This document shows, piece after piece, positions 1 to 10,755 of a stretch of 39,045 bases of DNA (position 1 is its first letter; each line of letters starts with the position of its first letter). The DNA comes from a virus. Where the stretch lies: IMG/VR virus record IMGVR_UViG_3300027842_000001, positions 1-39,045 of that record; one strand, written 5' to 3'. The position numbers and the translations under genes were made by a program. The notes beneath the pieces were generated by a model, which had not been told where the DNA came from, did no database searches, and saw only the letters and a list, made by a program, of their open reading frames with translations.

Positions 1-127
1 GGGGTCACCGCGCAACAAATCCAATGGGGCCTCGACAACGGTTGGGACGTCGTCGCGTATCTCTGGAAGTGGTTTAGCCTCGGCCTCGACGACACGCAGC
101 GCAAACTCGATTTACTCGAGCCGTTCA
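1..127. repeat. Terminal direct overlap, identical to 38919..39045 (circular closure of the contig)
   Basis: Read directly: bases 1-127 recur exactly at 38919-39045; an ORF stays in frame across the join. Confidence 0.95.
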
Positions 128-804
128 CGGGCCGATTGCTGGCGGTGGCCAACGATATCGAGGACACCACCATCGCCCCGCTGCAAGCGCTCGGCATCGG
201 CGCGCCGGTGCAGATGCAGCTCCCGCCCGAGCATCTCGCCCGCCTCGAGCGCCAGCCCCCGCCCGCGGTTGCCAATCACCCGACGGCTACCGCGGCGCTG
301 TCGCTCCAGGGGCGCCTCGATCAGCTCGCGGTGCTCTTCGAGCTGACCGACACGTATCCGACCATCCTCGGCGCCTCGATCGGCGGCAGCATCTACTACG
401 GCGGGCGCTGGTATCACGTGCCGTACCTAGGCGACACGACCATGCTCGCCGACCAGGGCCGCCGCGTGTGGCCAGCGCAGTACGACGGCGTCTACGACGT
501 GTCGGTGGTGACCCTCTTTGGCGGCTTCACGCTCGAGGCGGTGATCGCCAAGCAGCCGCAGGGCACGCTCACCGTCGGCGCGCTCGGCAACGTCGACCCG
601 GATATCTGCGCCGACGATCTCGCGCCACCACCACCAGCGCCGACCGAAGATCCCGGATGGGTGGCCAAAAAAAGCCGCGTGGTACAGCTCGCCGGTGAAT
701 TACTGGCAGTAGCCGACCAGCTCGACGGAAGCGCTGACGACCCGCCAACCGTGCACCAGCTCGCCGACGGCGTGCGCAACCGCGCGGGCGAGATCCTGGG
801 CTGA
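1..804 (+). CDS. Endolysin-like glycoside hydrolase (GH25/DUF1906-like), C-terminal part; same gene as 38793..39045 via the circular junction
   Basis: Frame 1 is open from base 1 to TGA 802-804 and is continuous with ATG 38793 through the overlap. GFDVSNWTG start, NDIEDT and WPAQYDG motifs resemble GH25-type lysozymes. Follows a holin-like gene. Confidence 0.65.
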   Translation, partial: GVTAQQIQWGLDNGWDVVAYLWKWFSLGLDDTQRKLDLLEPFTGRLLAVANDIEDTTIAPLQALGIGAPVQMQLPPEHLARLERQPPPAVANHPTATAALSLQGRLDQLAVLFELTDTYPTILGASIGGSIYYGGRWYHVPYLGDTTMLADQGRRVWPAQYDGVYDVSVVTLFGGFTLEAVIAKQPQGTLTVGALGNVDPDICADDLAPPPPAPTEDPGWVAKKSRVVQLAGELLAVADQLDGSADDPPTVHQLADGVRNRAGEILG

Positions 805-1057
805 ATGCGAGCGGCTGCGTCTACGCGCGACGGGGCCGCGTGTGCGGCCGTCGAGCGCTGTACTTGATCGACGGGCGGGCCGGCTGCGCGCGGCATTGGC
901 GGGCCATGCTGCGCGACCAGGTGCGCCGTTTCGGGCAAGCGCTGGTGACGCTCGCCGCGGGCGTGACTCGCGGGCCGGCTCCCGCGTGACTGACCGGCGC
1001 GGTGCGCGTGATTGGCGCATGTTCTCGCGAGGGCCTGCCGCGCCGTTTATCAGACCG

Positions 1058-1165
1058 ATGGACCTCCAACAGCTCGCACTCGTTTTAGCCGCACTCGGCA
1101 CCGTCATCACCGCAACCGCGCATCTTGTACGCGCCATTCACCGCGACGCGGACGCCGACCCGTAA
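1058..1165 (+). CDS. Small membrane protein (35 aa, one TM helix)
   Basis: ATG 1058, MDLQQLALVLAALGTVITATAHLV hydrophobic core; lies just after the endolysin-like gene. Confidence 0.45.
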   Translation: MDLQQLALVLAALGTVITATAHLVRAIHRDADADP

Positions 1166-1168
1166 CCA

Positions 1169-2017
1169 ATGGAGGACCGAACCCCGATGCAGCCCACACC
1201 CGCCACCAGCCCCCACGTCCACACCTTGCCCGACGGCCGCCAGGTCGCGCTCGGCCGAACGCGCTCGAGCGTGAACCAGGACCGTCGCACGGTGTTGTTT
1301 CGGCTGGCCAACTTCATCGACAAGCCGAACCTGCCACCGCTGCTCGACCACGTCGCGCCGCCCGAGGCCTTTTCCCCGCGCATGTTCGCCAACGATCGGC
1401 TAGGCGATTGCACGATCGCCGGCGAATGCAACGCGGTGCTTCTGGACGCCGCGCGCGCCGGCGTGGCGGCGCCGCCAATCTCGGACGACGACGCGATCGC
1501 GCGTTACAGCAAGGTCGACGGCTATGTGCCAGGCGACCCGTCGACCGACCAGGGGGGTATCGAGCTCGACGTGCTCAACGACTGGCGGCACGATCCGCTC
1601 AGCGGCATTGAGCTCGTGGCGTTTGCAAGCGTGGACGTCCACGACACGGAGCTACTGCGCTATGCGATCCAGCTTTTCGGGGGCGTGTACGACGGGATCG
1701 AGCTGCCCACCACGGCACAGTCACAGGTCGGCGGGTTATGGGACACCGTACCGGGGATGGTGCCGGGCTCGTGGGGCGGCCACTGCACGTACAAATGCGG
1801 CTTCGACTATCGGCTCGCGGTGCCCGAGTACCTCGACGCGACATGGGGCACGCTGCAACGGCTGACGGAGGCGTTCTGGCGGGCGATCGGCGACGAGGCC
1901 TACGTGCTGCTCACCGACGAGGCGCTCAAAGCGCCCGGCATCGACCGCGACAAAGTACTCGCGACACTGGCGCAGCTCGGCCAGGTCCAGAGTGGCGGAG
2001 CCACCGCGCCAACCTGA
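1169..2017 (+). CDS. Putative papain-like cysteine peptidase
   Basis: 282-aa ORF in the track with protein-like composition. NDRLGDCTIAG (candidate catalytic Cys) and SWGGHC (candidate His). Alternative start ATG 1187 has GGAGGA upstream. Confidence 0.6.
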   Translation: MEDRTPMQPTPATSPHVHTLPDGRQVALGRTRSSVNQDRRTVLFRLANFIDKPNLPPLLDHVAPPEAFSPRMFANDRLGDCTIAGECNAVLLDAARAGVAAPPISDDDAIARYSKVDGYVPGDPSTDQGGIELDVLNDWRHDPLSGIELVAFASVDVHDTELLRYAIQLFGGVYDGIELPTTAQSQVGGLWDTVPGMVPGSWGGHCTYKCGFDYRLAVPEYLDATWGTLQRLTEAFWRAIGDEAYVLLTDEALKAPGIDRDKVLATLAQLGQVQSGGATAPT

Positions 2018-2309
2018 GCTTGAGCTCGAGCTCGAGGCGCTCGTTCAGCACGCCGTCGCCCGCGTGCAGGCGATTGTCCGCGAGGCAGTCGAGGCCGCCG
2101 TGCGCGAGGCGGTCGGTCGCGCGGTCCACGACGAACGCAAACGCTGGACGCCGAAGATCCTCGACGCCACGCACGAACGGCAGCGCGTCGAGCTCGAGCT
2201 CGAGGCCGATCGCGAGCGCGCCGCGGGATACATCGCCCGCTTGTGGTCACTCATAGCCGCGCTGCTCGCCGAGCTGGCGGGCCGCTCCGATCCACCGGCG
2301 GCCGTCTAG
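1992..2309 (+). CDS. Hypothetical coiled-coil protein
   Basis: GTG start overlapping the end of the previous gene; ELELE/heptad-like charged sequence. Confidence 0.4.
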   Translation: MAEPPRQPELELELEALVQHAVARVQAIVREAVEAAVREAVGRAVHDERKRWTPKILDATHERQRVELELEADRERAAGYIARLWSLIAALLAELAGRSDPPAAV

Positions 2310-2451
2310 CGCAGCATGCCGACGGCTGCACGCGGCGCCTACGCTCAGCTCGCGATGCGCTGGTGCGCGATTTTCTGGCACGTGCTCTTTCACACGTCGG
2401 AGCGCGGCCACCGCTGCCGCGCCATGACGGGCGGGCACTGACCTGGCCGGC

Positions 2452-2673
2452 GTGTACGACGAACTTTTCCGCGATTCGCCGCCGACGCCGCGCGAGGAAA
2501 GGCTGCTCGATGCGCTGTCGCGGGCACACCTCGAGCTGGCGTATCTGCTCGACTTCCGCAGTGACGTGACGCGCTCGCTCGGCGAGCTCGAAGCACGGCG
2601 GGCCGCGATGATGCCCCGTCGGCGCACGCACAGCGCCGCCAGGCGGCCTCGAGGCCGACGTCCGGCTGGTTAG
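2452..2673 (+). CDS. Hypothetical small protein
   Basis: GTG start; N-terminal 50 aa look protein-like, the tail is Arg-rich. Confidence 0.35.
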   Translation: MYDELFRDSPPTPREERLLDALSRAHLELAYLLDFRSDVTRSLGELEARRAAMMPRRRTHSAARRPRGRRPAG

Positions 2674-2723
2674 GTGTCCGGGCGCCTGCCCCGTAAAAAC
2701 GCGCTGTGCGTGCGATTTCGGGC

Positions 2724-3044
2724 CTATTCGAGCCGAGCGCTGGCCAGCGCGCCGCGGAGGCGATCGACCGCGGCGCGGGCGCGGGTGAGCTCTTCGACGG
2801 CCGACTCGAGGATTTTCTCGATAGCTTCGGCTTTGGTGGCGCTCAGGCCGGACGTCACGTAGTCGCCGCTGCCCGACATGACGATGCGCCCGGAGTCGAC
2901 GTCGACCCATACGAACGGGCCGCCGCCGCCACCGAACGCCACGACCTCGTACACCGCGCCGTCGTAGGCCTGCGCGTACCAGCCCCGCGCGACGGGCCGC
3001 GGGCCGTTGGGCAGCTCGAGATCCAGCTCGACGCGGCTGGTCAT
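2724..3044 (-). CDS. Hypothetical protein (106 aa)
   Basis: ATG 3044 overlaps the upstream stop (ATGA). Protein-like sequence MTSRVELDLELPNG...; the 338-aa track ORF upstream of this start is Arg/Ala junk. Confidence 0.65.
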   Translation of the reverse strand: MTSRVELDLELPNGPRPVARGWYAQAYDGAVYEVVAFGGGGGPFVWVDVDSGRIVMSGSGDYVTSGLSATKAEAIEKILESAVEELTRARAAVDRLRGALASARLE

Positions 3045-3262
3045 ATGCGATCGACCTGGTAGCCGTCGACGTCGCGCCAGGTCGCGAATTGCTGCTCGAG
3101 GCCGGCGCGGTCCCCTTCGAAGTCGTCGATTTTTCCCTCGAGGCCACCCTGCCAGCGAATCGTGCCGCGGCGCGCCTCCGGGTCGAAGTCGACGTATGCC
3201 ACCCAACGCAAGTCGGGCGCGCCGAGCTCGGCCGCGCGCACCAGGTAATGCTCTATTGCCAC
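3041..3262 (-). CDS. Hypothetical protein (73 aa)
   Basis: Track ORF, balanced composition, stop overlaps the next start. Confidence 0.7.
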   Translation of the reverse strand: MAIEHYLVRAAELGAPDLRWVAYVDFDPEARRGTIRWQGGLEGKIDDFEGDRAGLEQQFATWRDVDGYQVDRI

Positions 3263-3265
3263 GGG

Positions 3266-3541
3266 TCAGCGGCCCCCCTCTTCCCCGGGGCGCACTTGGC
3301 CAGCGGCGGCGTGCTGTATGCCGTGGCGCGCCAGGTTGAGGATTGTTTCGGGATTGTCCGACGGCGTGAAGTCGGGCGGTACGGCGAGCGCCAGGTCGCA
3401 AAAGAGACACTCCGCGAGCAGCTCGTCGCCAAGCTGGCGCACGTCCAGAAAAAGCGAAAACTGACGCAGCCACGGCGGTAATTTCGCCTCGTCTAGCGGT
3501 GGCCCCGGCGGTCGGTCGACGACGTCGCGCCCGTCGCTCAT
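3266..3541 (-). CDS. Hypothetical protein (91 aa)
   Basis: Track ORF, balanced composition, part of the coupled chain. Confidence 0.65.
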   Translation of the reverse strand: MSDGRDVVDRPPGPPLDEAKLPPWLRQFSLFLDVRQLGDELLAECLFCDLALAVPPDFTPSDNPETILNLARHGIQHAAAGQVRPGEEGGR

Positions 3542-3798
3542 TTGGACATCGCCCCGACGGGCCGCGGCTGCGCGCTGGTGAGCACGGCCGACCAGTACTC
3601 GTAGGGCTCGAGGACCACGAAAAACGGCGCCGGGTGGCGGTCGCGCATGTGGAAAATCGAGCGACCTTTGCCGTCGTCGCTGGCGGTGATGATGGCCACC
3701 GCGTCGAGATTGAACAGGCGTTTAGCCGAGCGCAGCCCATCCGGGTCGCGCGGGTCGCTCTGAGCGTCGCGGTAGAGCACGGTCGCCTCGACCATCAT
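3538..3798 (-). CDS. Hypothetical protein (86 aa)
   Basis: ATG 3798 sits in junction repeat copy 1; ATGA overlaps at both ends. Confidence 0.7.
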   Translation of the reverse strand: MMVEATVLYRDAQSDPRDPDGLRSAKRLFNLDAVAIITASDDGKGRSIFHMRDRHPAPFFVVLEPYEYWSAVLTSAQPRPVGAMSK

Positions 3799-3813
3799 TG
3801 GGACACCGCCCCG
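3795..3813 (-). repeat. Gene-junction repeat, copy 1 (minus strand CGGGGCGGTGTCCCAATGA)
   Basis: Encodes GAVSQ-stop of the upstream gene and the ATG of the downstream gene. Confidence 0.9.
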
Positions 3814-4055
3814 GGCTTTGGCACGCCGTAGTCGACGTCGGGATTAGCGGGGCCAAACTCGAGGTACACCGGCTCGGCCGTCGAGCCCCAAAACTCGGCA
3901 TTACACGTGTTGCACAGCAGCGCGGGGACCTTCAGCTCGGGCGAGCTCAGCCAGAAAAACGGCCGCGTCGTGCCGTGGCAACGCTGGCACGTCTCGCCCG
4001 CCGTTTCGTCCATTGAGGCCGGCCAGGCGGCGACCTCGGACATACGCTCGCTCAT
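3795..4055 (-). CDS. Zinc-ribbon protein (86 aa)
   Basis: ATG 4055 lies inside junction repeat copy 2. Has CQRCHG...CNTCN. C-terminus GAVSQ-stop is encoded by junction repeat copy 1. Confidence 0.7.
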   Translation of the reverse strand: MSERMSEVAAWPASMDETAGETCQRCHGTTRPFFWLSSPELKVPALLCNTCNAEFWGSTAEPVYLEFGPANPDVDYGVPKPGAVSQ

Positions 4056-4070
4056 TGGGACACCGCCCCG
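4052..4070 (-). repeat. Gene-junction repeat, copy 2
   Basis: Identical 19-mer; supplies ATG 4055. Confidence 0.9.
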
Positions 4071-4107
4071 GACGTGCGGGCGAGCTCTGCACGTGCCCAA
4101 ACGACGA

Positions 4108-4428
4108 CTACCACGATCGCCAACGTCGCCTGCTCGTGTGGTTGGAAGTGCTCACGCCACTATAGGGACGCCACGGCTGCGCGCGGCTCATTGGGACACC
4201 GCCCCGAGCTCGCCAAGGCGCGGCGGCATGGTCGGTGGTTCGACCTGGTGGCTCATTGGGACACCGCCCGTCCGCTACCGCGACATGGCGACGCAGGTCC
4301 TCGGCGCAGTCGGTCGGCACGGCCTCGAGGCGGCGATCGCTGCGGAGCCAGCCGTCGACCAGCTCGGTGGCGGCGCGGTGCTGTTCAAGCAGCGTAAGTC
4401 TGACGGTCGGTGGTTCGACCTGGTGCAT
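4108..4428 (-). CDS. Hypothetical protein, possibly a frameshift fusion of a short gene with degenerate duplicates
   Basis: ATG 4428 overlaps the upstream TAA (TAATG). The ORF reads through junction repeat copies 4 and 3 in two other frames; see findings. Confidence 0.4.
   Translation of the reverse strand: MHQVEPPTVRLTLLEQHRAATELVDGWLRSDRRLEAVPTDCAEDLRRHVAVADGRCPNEPPGRTTDHAAAPWRARGGVPMSRAQPWRPYSGVSTSNHTSRRRWRSW
4188..4206 (-). repeat. Gene-junction repeat, copy 3
   Basis: Identical 19-mer; supplies ATG 4191 of a 27-codon mini-ORF and the stop of a 22-codon mini-ORF. Confidence 0.9.
4253..4270 (-). repeat. Gene-junction repeat, copy 4 (one C/G shorter)
   Basis: 18-mer with G3 instead of G4; supplies ATG 4256. 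Confidence 0.85.
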
Positions 4429-4853
4429 TACTCGGGTACTCCTTCCATGAGCGACGCGGCGAGCGCGTCGGGAATCAACTCATCGGCCCACCAGCGATAG
4501 CAACCGTTGAGAGTTGGGCGCTCGAGGCCAATTAGGGCCAGTTCAGCCGCGGCGACAAACTCGTGGCGCGGTCGACGGACGCGAGCCGCGCGCCTCAGAA
4601 CCTCGGCCGGTGTCCAAAACTCAGCGAGCCAGCTATCCGACTCACTGCCGGCGGCCCCGATTGTCTCGGCGGCGGGCCCGGGGTTGCTCCATGCGGCGCC
4701 GATCGCGTGCGAGCGGACGCGCGTCCACGGGTTCGCGGATCGGCCAACGTAGAGAGCTCGCCCGCGGCCGTCGCGAATCACATACACGCGATGGTCGGCG
4801 GGGATCTCCCCGCGGACCGTGGCGCGGATCTCAGCCAGCGTGTAGCGCTTCAC
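4428..4853 (-). CDS. GIY-YIG domain protein (putative nuclease)
   Basis: GTG 4853 overlaps the recombinase stop (GTGA). VYVIRDGRGRALYVGRSANPWTRVRSH fits GIY-(10-11 aa)-YxG...R...H. Confidence 0.6.
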   Translation of the reverse strand: MKRYTLAEIRATVRGEIPADHRVYVIRDGRGRALYVGRSANPWTRVRSHAIGAAWSNPGPAAETIGAAGSESDSWLAEFWTPAEVLRRAARVRRPRHEFVAAAELALIGLERPTLNGCYRWWADELIPDALAASLMEGVPE

Positions 4854-5512
4854 CACACCACGCCGTCGGCCGTCGCGCGCCGCTCGGGGTTGGCGAGGCG
4901 TAGGTAGATCGCCGTCGTATCGAGGCGCGCGTGGCCGAGCTGCTGCTGCACTTCGGACACCGGCACGCCTTGGCGTATCTGATTGACGGCGGCGCCGTGG
5001 CGGAAGTCACGCGCCGTAACCGGCTGCATGCGGCCGAGCACGTCGACCAGCCACACACCCGCGCGGCTCGAGGCGGCGTTGATGATTCGCCACGCTTGCG
5101 CGCGATGCATCGGGCGGGCGCGCCGGTGGGACTGGCGAGAGCGGAAGTAGTAGCCGTCCCACGGCACCCGCGCATCGACGGCCAGCGCGCGCAACTGCGC
5201 CACCAGGTCGCGTGAGACATAGACCGCCTTACGGGCCGTCGCGCGGCGTTGCTTGAGGTTCGGCAGTCGGAGTGCCCCCTCGTCCTCGTCGACGTCGCAC
5301 GGCCGCAGCCGCAGCACTTCACTGAGGCGCCCGCCCGACTGCCAGAGGGTTTCGAGCAACAGACGGTGAGTCGTCGTCTGCGCGGCGTTCACGATCTTGC
5401 GCGCCTGGTCGCGGGTGACGTACCGCGGCAGCGCGTCGCCGGCAGCCCGTGCGGCGATCGCCGCGGCGGGGCGGCGGGCGATCGCCGTTACGTTTTCCAT
5501 GTAGCGTTGCAC
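4850..5512 (-). CDS. int: Small tyrosine recombinase (XerC/D- or Cre-like catalytic domain only)
   Basis: ETLWQSGGRLSEVLRLR (Arg I), RDFRHGAAV (HxxR), LGHARLDTTAIYLRL (His/Tyr) in canonical order. Only about 220 aa; alternative start ATG 5500. Confidence 0.85.
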   Translation of the reverse strand: MQRYMENVTAIARRPAAAIAARAAGDALPRYVTRDQARKIVNAAQTTTHRLLLETLWQSGGRLSEVLRLRPCDVDEDEGALRLPNLKQRRATARKAVYVSRDLVAQLRALAVDARVPWDGYYFRSRQSHRRARPMHRAQAWRIINAASSRAGVWLVDVLGRMQPVTARDFRHGAAVNQIRQGVPVSEVQQQLGHARLDTTAIYLRLANPERRATADGVVW

Positions 5513-5608
5513 TCTACCCGTGCTCGCCGTCGGCGTCTACGAGCGGCGCCGGCGCTCAGCGGCGCGGCGGGCGCATCCGAATGCGGGGACGGTTTCTCAC
5601 AGTTACGC

Positions 5609-5806
5609 TCAGTCGGACGGCCAGCGTTCGCCGCGCCATTTGCGCTCGGCCTCGGCCTCGATGCGGTCCCGAAGAAACGCGCTCATCGGGTGCCGACGGC
5701 GCCACCACCAGCGCGCCAGCCAGCGAGCATTCATCACCAAGCCACCGCTCAACACGTAGACGAACAACCCGCCACCGACGAACGCGACCACCAGGTCGAG
5801 GCTCAC
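5609..5806 (-). CDS. Small membrane protein (65 aa)
   Basis: GTG 5806 overlaps the upstream stop (GTGA); LDLVVAFVGGGLFVYVLSGGLV TM segment. Confidence 0.5.
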   Translation of the reverse strand: MSLDLVVAFVGGGLFVYVLSGGLVMNARWLARWWWRRRHPMSAFLRDRIEAEAERKWRGERWPSD

Positions 5807-6015
5807 GGGCCTGTCTCGGCCTCGAGCCGCTCCGCGATCGCCCGCGCCTGAGCAGCTCGCGCCCGCGCATTCGGCGCGATTGATGCCGCGGCCGTCCACC
5901 ACGCCGCGCCGTCAAAGATGCGCGCGGCCTCGGCAGCCTGCGCCTCTTCCCATTCGGCAGCGCGGCGCCATTCGGCCGCGACACGCTGGCGCTGCGCTCG
6001 GGTCAGACTGCTCAC
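5803..6015 (-). CDS. Hypothetical protein (70 aa)
   Basis: GTG 6015 overlaps the upstream TGA; Trp/Ala-rich helical sequence. Confidence 0.5.
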   Translation of the reverse strand: MSSLTRAQRQRVAAEWRRAAEWEEAQAAEAARIFDGAAWWTAAASIAPNARARAAQARAIAERLEAETGP

Positions 6016-6173
6016 GGGCCCGGCGCATCCTCCGCGGGGACCTCGCGGCGCGATCCCTCGCACACCGCCCCACCGTCGCCGTGGCGCACAAAGACCTCGA
6101 CCGATCCATCCCCACCGCCGGGCACCACCGTGCGCACCCGACGCCCGCACCAGGGGCACACGCGGCTAGGCAT
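6012..6173 (-). CDS. Zinc-ribbon mini-protein (53 aa, below the track cutoff)
   Basis: Hand translation: MPSRVCPWCGRRVRTVVPGGGDGSVEVFVRHGDGGAVCEG... ATG 6173 overlaps the upstream TAG; its TGA overlaps the next GTG. Confidence 0.55.
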   Translation of the reverse strand: MPSRVCPWCGRRVRTVVPGGGDGSVEVFVRHGDGGAVCEGSRREVPAEDAPGP

Positions 6174-8537: not shown

Positions 8538-8875
8538 GGGCGCCGATTCGTCGGCAGCACGATCAGCCCCGACGGGCTCAGCCGCTCGCCGTCGGCCAGG
8601 TCGTAGGCCGACTGCCAGCTTTGCGCCATCACTCGAGACAGCGCGGGCGTCGTCGCCAGGTGCTCGCCGATCGCGCGAGCGAACTCGATCGCGATACGCA
8701 GGGTCGGATGGTTCGGCGCCTCCGGGTGCCGCGCCGCGAGCTGCACCGCGCACACCAGGCACCACCAGCTCAGCGGCGTGGCTTCGATCGGGTATTCGGT
8801 GTGGTCCGCACTCAGCAGCGCGAACTCGTTGCGGAAGGCGACCTCGAGCTCGAGCTCGCTTTTGGGCGTCTCCAT
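8534..8875 (-). CDS. Hypothetical protein (113 aa)
   Basis: ATG 8875 overlaps the upstream TGA by 1 nt; protein-like from METPKSELELEV... Confidence 0.65.
   Translation of the reverse strand: METPKSELELEVAFRNEFALLSADHTEYPIEATPLSWWCLVCAVQLAARHPEAPNHPTLRIAIEFARAIGEHLATTPALSRVMAQSWQSAYDLADGERLSPSGLIVLPTNRRP

Positions 8876-9964: not shown

Positions 9965-10755
<791 letters not shown>

Follow-up and report, generated by a model that had tools for sequence, protein, structure and literature searches.

Why do neighbouring genes that are not paralogs meet at almost the same short sequence? This question is raised by the early region of the virus record IMGVR_UViG_3300027842_000001, whose 39,045 bp were analysed as one stretch, here called the window. 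The record is complete, with direct terminal repeats and a G+C content of about 70% over the whole window. A minus-strand chain of small genes, most of them linked by ATGA or GTGA overlaps, holds an array of copies of the 19-mer CGGGGCGGTGTCCCAATGA at the gene junctions. On balance, we favour the view that this junction is a module of stop codon, ribosome site and start codon resembling the start-associated sequences (SAS) of actinobacteriophages, and that it was copied locally by recombination, leaving decayed remnants between the copies.

Five copies of the junction within 730 bp

The 19-mer is present as three exact minus-strand copies, at 3795 (J1), 4052 (J2) and 4188 (J3). The original prediction had listed a fourth at 4253 (J4), which reads ACGGGCGG... 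and, as noted there, is one G short; we count this as two mismatches. A fifth, diverged copy had been overlooked. The latter, CGGGGCGATGTCCAAATGA at 3538–3556 (J0), joins genes G and H, encodes GAMSK-stop and differs by two substitutions, each of which changes an amino acid. At three or fewer mismatches the motif is found five times, compared to zero expected from 100 shuffles, and no further copy exists anywhere in the genome at this threshold; all five lie within 730 bp (3538–4271). J1, J2 and J3 are 91–96% identical across 23 nucleotides (nt), and J4 and J3 are identical at 20 of 20 nt, ATGAGCC included. The repeat is real and far beyond chance, and is only moderately unusual as a SAS resemblance together with a recombination scar. 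The features of the array are given below; codon scores are in bits per codon, from a model trained on 12 long open reading frames (ORFs) of the same genome with high G+C at third codon positions, and lengths of products are in amino acids (aa).

4405..4425, minus strand: repeat R, copy 1, codons 2–8 of gene C (HQVEPPT); an exact 21-nt direct repeat with 4230–4250
4267..4428, minus strand: gene C, coding part, 54 codons, codon score +0.31; the ORF as sequenced continues to 4108 (106 aa)
4253..4271, minus strand: junction copy J4, with GGG in place of GGGG and its TGA out of frame with gene C
4188..4256, minus strand: mini-ORF D, 22 aa, made of ATGAGC from J4, repeat R copy 2 (4230–4250), 25 nt of unmatched origin, and J3
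4188..4210, minus strand: junction copy J3, exact by repeat comparison
4071..4187, minus strand: unit E, a decayed fragment by codon scores and frame reading
4052..4074, minus strand: junction copy J2, exact; start and putative ribosome site of gene F, terminating no gene now
3795..4055, minus strand: gene F, 86 aa, CxxC...CxxC, with its GAVSQ-stop end within J1; codon score +0.37
3795..3817, minus strand: junction copy J1, exact, followed by ATGATG
3538..3798, minus strand: gene G, 86 aa, with its GAMSK-stop end within J0; codon score +0.50
3538..3556, minus strand: junction copy J0, two mismatches, from the motif scan
3266..3541, minus strand: gene H, 91 aa, the first gene past the last junction copy; codon score +0.36

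The core of the motif, GGGGCGGTGTCCC, has the form GGG-N7-CCC. In all five copies it lies on the minus strand, runs in the direction of the genes and is followed by one base and then ATG. All copies sit in one orientation at ATGA overlaps in the chain of coupled early genes, where they occupy −18 to +4 relative to each ATG. The genes that flank them are not paralogs, and genes F and G are unrelated in sequence despite their equal length, which places the identity in the junction itself. The claim that each copy ends one gene is right for three of the five: gene F ends at 3795, D at 4188 and gene G in the variant copy at 3538. At 4052, the GAVSQ frame is open for 36 codons only, lacks an ATG and is cut by a TAG at 4162–4160; at 4253, the stop is out of frame, since the distance from ATG 4428 to this stop is 176 nt. 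J2 is perfect even though no gene ends there.

Complementarity to the ribosome and resemblance to SAS

The motif contains an imperfect Shine–Dalgarno sequence, GGCGG, at −12 to −8, with a 7-nt spacer before the ATG of the ATGA overlap. Duplex folding against the canonical 16S rRNA tail GAUCACCUCCUUUCU, which may not be that of the host, gave −11.1 kcal/mol for J1–J3, −12.9 kcal/mol for J4 and −8.5 kcal/mol for J0, compared to a mean of −5.0 kcal/mol for random 22-mers of the genome (5th percentile −9.7 kcal/mol, 1st percentile −12.3 kcal/mol). With this tail the motif falls at about the top 2–3% of random 22-mers, on par with the best conventional sites of the operon, namely the strong ribosome site of gene C, GGAAGGAG (−11.7 kcal/mol, at 4428), and the site at 8875 (−12.8 kcal/mol), and the pairing runs on through GUG and UC. 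The complementarity to the tail and the 7-nt spacing support the original suggestion of a shared translational signal.

ATGA overlaps couple translation by termination–reinitiation, an intragenic Shine–Dalgarno motif is often important for this reinitiation, and local structure can block free initiation at coupled starts (PMC6728339). Our junctions resemble such sites in their 4-nt overlap, in a Shine–Dalgarno-like intragenic element at normal spacing, and in a 5-bp hairpin over the element (GGGGC-GGU-GUCCC, −6.7 kcal/mol) that could limit free initiation. In contrast, ordinary junctions are not identical over 19–23 nt, whereas here one module is used five times between unrelated genes.

We propose that the junction is a self-contained unit, consisting of the last five codons of the upstream gene, the ribosome-binding element and the ATGA stop/start overlap. 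A ribosome completing the upstream gene would halt at UGA, where GGCGGUG, 7 nt upstream, would pair with the anti-Shine–Dalgarno tail and retain it for a restart at the overlapping AUG. At J2, ahead of gene F, the upstream gene is dead; in such places the element may recruit ribosomes alone, and the small hairpin may restrict free initiation. The junction would have been spread by ectopic recombination or tandem duplication in a region rich in ORFans, leaving fragments D and E, and a 1-nt deletion from GGGG to GGG would then have fused gene C to a junk tail. We infer the translational role as well as this order of recombination events; under this proposal the copies would be near-identical over 19–23 nt because they were copied and did not converge.

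Its form would make the junction a local counterpart of the SAS known from phages of Clusters K and EF. In Cluster K mycobacteriophages, the SAS (GGGATAGGAGCCC) are asymmetric repeats of 13 nt, bounded by GGG and CCC, that lie a few nucleotides before ATG starts, at the ribosome site and only of non-structural genes; they are more conserved than rRNA pairing explains, and their authors left the binding factor open (PMC3203893). A motif of the same type (GGGAAAGGACCCC) occurs in Cluster EF Microbacterium phages (PMC7302621). The likeness extends to a 13-nt core that is asymmetric and has GGG-N7-CCC outer symmetry, to the single orientation, to the position at the ribosome site directly before almost always ATG starts of non-structural genes, to a conservation too high for a ribosome site, and to an upstream stop codon that can fall inside the motif. 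The differences are that the centre is GCGGTGT (GGCGG with its mismatch) and not AGGAG or AGGA, that there are five copies in 730 bp compared to 10–19 along a genome arm, that the core ends 1 nt before the ATG compared to 3–7 nt in Cluster K, that our motif is in every case embedded in upstream coding sequence, at an ATGA overlap, and that it has no extended (ESAS) inverted repeat upstream. SAS are conserved before different gene families in related phages. For our motif, no diverged relative of the region was found, and it recurs in two unrelated contigs, L114 and L116, described below.

A fixed 1-nt frameshift and a decaying patch

The missing G of J4 was followed across assemblies that span several samples and years (those of ENA were made with MEGAHIT), in a comparison at contig or consensus level. 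The exact protein G is present on nine contigs (JGI, ENA, NCBI and Logan assemblies; several samples), seven of which cover J4; all seven read GACGGGCGG and have identical junction spacings of 65, 136, 257 and 257 nt. These near-identical assemblies are 99.8–100% identical to the window, and private single-nucleotide polymorphisms (SNPs) elsewhere in three of them mark these as separate populations. Contigs of four sequencing runs, X1–X4 (soil 2017, mine 2024, soil 2020), agree in the GGG and in the arrangement. There are no indels, joints or copy-number variants at the repeats in the seven assemblies or in the contigs of the four runs, and the arrangement, with its repeats and frameshifts, is stable across samples. 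As had been predicted, the difference between G3 and G4 shifts the frame by 1 nt and is real at the DNA level, whereas the copy-number variation between units that had been expected appears in no assembly. An artefact of assembly or sequencing, that is, a homopolymer miscall at 4266–4270 or a mis-join at a repeat, has a negligible probability. Apart from the fact that the difference falls in a G run, nothing favours it, and the sequence is identical in JGI, ENA (MEGAHIT), NCBI and Logan assemblies from populations set apart by their SNPs; the same GGG in independent assemblies excludes an assembly error at the consensus level. As the assemblies are nearly identical and their SNPs all fall outside 3266–4850, they are uninformative on selection.

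A minor 97-nt unitig was seen in run X2, at a depth of 5.7 compared to 14.9 for the main path. It joins plus-strand 4155–4184 to minus-strand 4275–4246 via 37 unaligned bases, its branch points lie 3–4 nt from J3 and J4, and a foldback, an inversion-type variant or a chimera could each account for it.

The codon model divides gene C into two parts. Its first 54 codons score +0.31 bits per codon, while the 52-codon tail that is read on past the junction (4266–4111) scores −0.41; for reference, the 5th percentile of in-frame 52-codon windows is +0.10 and the mean of off-frame windows is −0.55. G+C by codon position agrees with the codon scores and is inverted in the tail. The drop from +0.31 to −0.41 makes it most likely that gene C used to end at the junction and that its present tail is junk. 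Consistent with the original prediction, the frame reads ...VADGAVSQ-stop once one G is added to J4. The 106-aa ORF is not a credible gene, and is better handled as a frameshifted gene than as a bona fide protein. That GGG is functional as it stands, either through a programmed −1 frameshift at GAC-GGG-C or because the 106-aa protein is real, we regard as highly improbable. GGG is fixed in every sample, and the long frame, with which ATG 4191 is in phase, has 106 codons without a stop; on the other hand, the tail scores like off-frame sequence and has inverted codon-position G+C, the site (GAC-GGG-CGG) has no X-XXY-YYZ slippery heptamer, and no significant structure lies downstream. A programmed −1 ribosomal frameshift has such a heptamer, a stimulatory structure and two coding frames, none of which was found here.

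Downstream of gene C, the coding signal collapses from about 4270 to 4060. Mini-ORF D, with its 22 codons, has a weak score of +0.22 per codon, the 27-codon ORF in the frame of ATG 4191 scores −0.25, and the J2 frame downstream of its TAG scores +0.07, compared to +0.36 to +0.50 for genes F, G and H. In sliding windows, no frame of either strand scores well at about 4230–4081. The unit between ATG 4191 and the stop at 4052 spans 140 nt (3n+2) and is frameshifted as well. We read the segment of about 4056–4270, some 200 bases between three of the copies, as gene fragments in decay. The patch is mis-annotated by gene callers, which skip 4056–4270 and call a shadow ORF on the opposite strand. The latter, a plus-strand ORF at 4228–4500 (90 aa) in public gene calls, spans the boundary between gene C and the GIY-YIG-like gene upstream; it was rejected as a gene, being a shadow of the two that scores +0.17 per codon compared to +0.31 for gene C.

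On the minus strand, the decayed unit E contains the hexamer TATAGT (4159–4164), some 100 nt ahead of gene F; the TAG of this hexamer is the one that breaks the J2 frame. It is the sole TATANT hexamer on either strand of the genome (3.8 expected) and may be a candidate internal −10 element for gene F.

Traces of recombination at the repeats

On the minus strand, the layout from gene C onwards is ATG, R (21 nt), 135 nt of gene C, junction, R, 25 nt, junction, so that perfect repeats are interleaved in the order R (21 nt), J (20 nt), R, J. The 21-bp repeat is exact between 4230–4250 and 4405–4425, as first noted. The join of the junction ATGAGC(C) to R is what a tandem duplication of the segment from R to the junction would create. 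This arrangement makes at least one recent ectopic event evident. Both mini-ORFs of the original prediction exist, with 22 codons (4188–4256) and 27 codons (4108–4191), but the end of the 27-codon one is not a junction copy. The further view that the 22-codon ORF is an internally deleted duplicate of the gene at 4428 is not demonstrated, as the two share only the 21-nt N-terminal piece. The 25 nt in the middle of D and the whole of unit E have no match in genes C, F or G, and an origin from any of these was rejected on this ground. The idea of recombination between junction repeats stands in part: ectopic recombination or duplication would account for the interleaved repeats and the coding collapse, but there are no copy-number variants.

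This idea follows the same logic as the promoter-early stem-loop (PeSL) cassettes of T4-type phages. These are intergenic elements of about 100 bp with a sigma-70 promoter and a terminator, and evidence for their shuffling comes from differences between close relatives and from mini-circles (PMC2839356, PMC4122927). In both cases, short repeated expression signals lie beside small ORFan genes in a hyperplastic early region, where recombination between the copies is proposed to add, remove and shuffle whole genes while their expression is kept. In contrast to the PeSL, our repeat has 19–23 nt, is by our reading translational and lies within coding sequence; no promoter-like consensus site was found in 3000–5700 and no terminator at the repeats, and no variants bounded by repeats were seen in the seven assemblies or in the contigs of the four runs.

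Occurrence of the motif outside the window

The region had no match among 50,697 phage records (megablast, blastn). Searches for IMG/VR relatives via gene F, the recombinase, the GIY-YIG gene, the DnaC-like loader and an ATPase returned none, or one remote integrase match, and no diverged relative carrying these genes was found, only the copies that are 99.8–100% identical. Scans with an exact 17-mer of the motif gave single matches, 1 viral (IMG/VR), 62 in metagenomes and 36 in genomes, and no relative with several copies; we estimate that about 70 chance matches are expected in the genome collection. A looser 16-base pattern matched 17 loci in IMG/VR, none of which has a junction array. Stop/start overlaps between long ORFs hold 28 of 98 natural occurrences of the 17-mer, and some of these are kept across Actinomycetota or Pseudomonas; this enrichment, obtained without a control motif for comparison, is suggestive only. 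The conservation at chromosomal overlaps suggests that the 17-mer is a recurrent natural junction word. One such overlap, ...HMRAVSQ-stop / MTDEESP..., is kept in several Actinomycetota including Mycolicibacterium, and another, ...ARAVSQ-stop / MSISLKT..., in several Pseudomonas (loci of the conserved chromosomal junctions: L078, L080, L107, L054, L070; L048, L087, L088, L090, L097).

Two soil contigs, L114 and L116, carry a second near-copy in register at an adjacent gene junction, where we estimate that about 0.25 second copies would be expected by chance over all 62 loci. Neither has detectable protein homology with the window. In L114 (= L073), positions 1347–3671 encode an XRE regulator, a 315-aa tyrosine recombinase and small Cys-rich genes that end in GTVSQ and GAVSQ and are joined by GGGAACGGTGTCTCAATGA and GGGGCGGTGTCCCAATGAGC, a layout like that of the window. 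In L116 (= L023), positions 72–4329 hold a chain of 19 tiny coupled genes, and the genes flanking the junctions are again not paralogs. This chain has three local junction families in which adjacent junctions share 14–17 nt, namely GGGGACGGTGAGTGATG (three copies), the present motif (three to four copies) and CCTTCTACTGGrGAGAC (two to three copies). One of these families lies within coding sequence at one junction and between genes at another, which argues for a signal at the nucleotide level, and the pattern as a whole argues for a general habit of locally shared junctions.

The upstream recombinase and the alternative explanations

With the two genes upstream of the array, the minus-strand order is tyrosine recombinase, GIY-YIG-like gene, gene C, units D and E, and genes F, G and H, the first two being as follows.

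4850..5500, minus strand: short tyrosine recombinase, 216 aa; Pfam Phage_integrase 1.1e-21, PHROG integrase; same operon, upstream
4428..4853, minus strand: GIY-YIG-like endonuclease gene, 141 aa; Pfam GIY-YIG 8e-4 (under the curated cutoff), PHROG_16880 endonuclease 2.8e-6

The recombinase belongs to a short family found at 50–68% identity with HMMER among 1.84 billion representatives. In the sole long context available, that of the homolog P0003 (58% identity, contig L135), the gene after the recombinase encodes an HNH endonuclease, convergent genes come next, and no junction repeats lie downstream. A cassette system tied to the recombinase is therefore not supported. The place directly behind the short recombinase is taken by a GIY-YIG-like gene in the window (4428–4853) and by an HNH gene in L135 (4640–5137), and looks like an insertion spot of homing endonucleases.

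Several findings weigh against a SAS-like translational module. The Shine–Dalgarno core has a central mismatch (GGCGG compared to GGAGG), and the canonical tail with which it was paired may not be the host's; the invariant spacer TGTCCCA is conserved beyond the needs of ribosome pairing; and larger RNA folds are no better than shuffles at the five junctions (z −0.25 to +0.52). There are only five copies, all in 730 bp, whereas SAS are scattered across half a genome. The searches found no diverged phage relative with this region, so that neither conservation nor covariation supports the module, and the exact 17-mer search biases which outside contigs surfaced. Finally, recombination at the repeats appears historical and not demonstrably ongoing, as the seven assemblies have no copy-number variants.

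The spacer identity leads to an alternative in which a phage or host protein or a small RNA binds the motif, as DNA or mRNA, and co-regulates the early block; a role of this kind has been proposed for SAS. Stoperators of L5-type phages and T4 RegA sites are motifs shown to be bound by regulators; the stoperators are 20–30 short asymmetric repeats that have one orientation relative to transcription, often lie over stop or start codons, are dispersed genome-wide and are bound by the phage repressor. Our copies are likewise short, asymmetric, in one orientation and placed over stop and start codons, but they are clustered and not dispersed. An operator would account for the identity over 19–23 nt that includes a spacer with no need for rRNA pairing, and for the GGG-N7-CCC outer symmetry shared with SAS, whose binding factor was left open in the same paper that mentions the stoperators of Cluster A phages (PMC3203893). 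The motif core GGTGTCC is also over-represented, with 16 occurrences in the genome compared to 5.8 expected, three of them in tandem in an iteron-like patch at 10631–10658 (plus strand), although outside the junctions and this patch it is near chance level. Since no copy exists elsewhere at three or fewer mismatches, no binding protein can be named and recent copying explains the perfect identity equally well, we regard an operator as a minority possibility. The array might instead be only a scar, in which duplications and deletions copied an ordinary junction that has no function beyond that of any ATGA overlap and has not yet diverged. The interleaved perfect R-J-R-J repeats, the two frameshifted units with the coding collapse at 4270–4060, and the older-looking J0, which has drifted by two mismatches that both change an amino acid, fit this account. 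However, genes F and G are unrelated, so that whole units could only have been duplicated long ago, with the junction nonetheless staying perfect. Adjacent junctions of unrelated contigs carry the motif too, and its rRNA complementarity is at about the top 2–3% of random 22-mers; we give a pure scar a small chance.

It is very unlikely that the repeats are cassette recombination sites, in the manner of integrons or shufflons, for the adjacent tyrosine recombinase or for the GIY-YIG endonuclease. Integron attC sites are folded imperfect palindromes of 55–140 nt with a GTT core, and the sfx repeats of R64 are 19 bp long and occur in inverted pairs. The array shares with these systems a tyrosine recombinase beside small unrelated genes parted by a repeat, which matches sfx in its 19 bp; the recombinase lies directly upstream in L114 too, the repeats bound tiny unrelated ORFan genes, and the 97-nt unitig of run X2 switches strand with break points 3–4 nt from J3 and J4. 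Against this, the repeat is short, direct and unstructured (the z values given above), lacks GTT, AAC, a GTTRRRY core and an attC-like fold, and has no inverted partner, all copies being direct. Moreover, the recombinase homolog at 58% identity in L135 is not linked to such an array, the L114 recombinase is not detectably close, the seven assemblies contain no excision or copy-number variants, and the phage has a separate large serine integrase.

A SAS-like module copied by recombination also leads to a broader suggestion, which we offer tentatively and consider rather doubtful: the junction could be a portable 'translational cassette boundary', a full unit of stop, ribosome site and start that gives high-GC soil phages a safe recombination substrate on which to insert, delete and swap tiny ORFan early genes in frame. 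If true, it would be to translation what the PeSL cassettes of T4-type phages are to transcription, and it would explain the identical junctions between unrelated genes, the junction families of L114 and L116, and the fragments between the copies. Should the copies also guide recombination, they would provide a concrete mechanism by which tiny ORFan early genes turn over rapidly and yet stay expressed. Should the motif be a start-associated signal, the class would be extended from cultured tailed actinobacteriophages to an uncultured soil phage, in a form that is built into ATGA overlaps inside coding sequence.

Further observations on the neighbouring genes

The TAA of the GIY-YIG-like gene overlaps ATG 4428 of gene C. 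Among 5.8 billion proteins, the only homolog of the GIY-YIG-like protein is itself; gene F likewise matched only itself in a homolog search, and a search with the N-terminal part of gene C returned nothing. The look-alikes of gene F from a language model are small Actinomycetota proteins, and the predicted fold of gene G is like that of small phage proteins (TM 0.70); both are leads only. The region has no Rfam match. A second, weaker junction family was seen within the window, in which the adjacent GTGA overlaps at 5801–5823 and 6010–6032 (minus strand) share ...GGCCCGTGAGC, with 78% identity over 23 nt, and the neighbouring junction at 6173 shares GAGACAGGCCCG.

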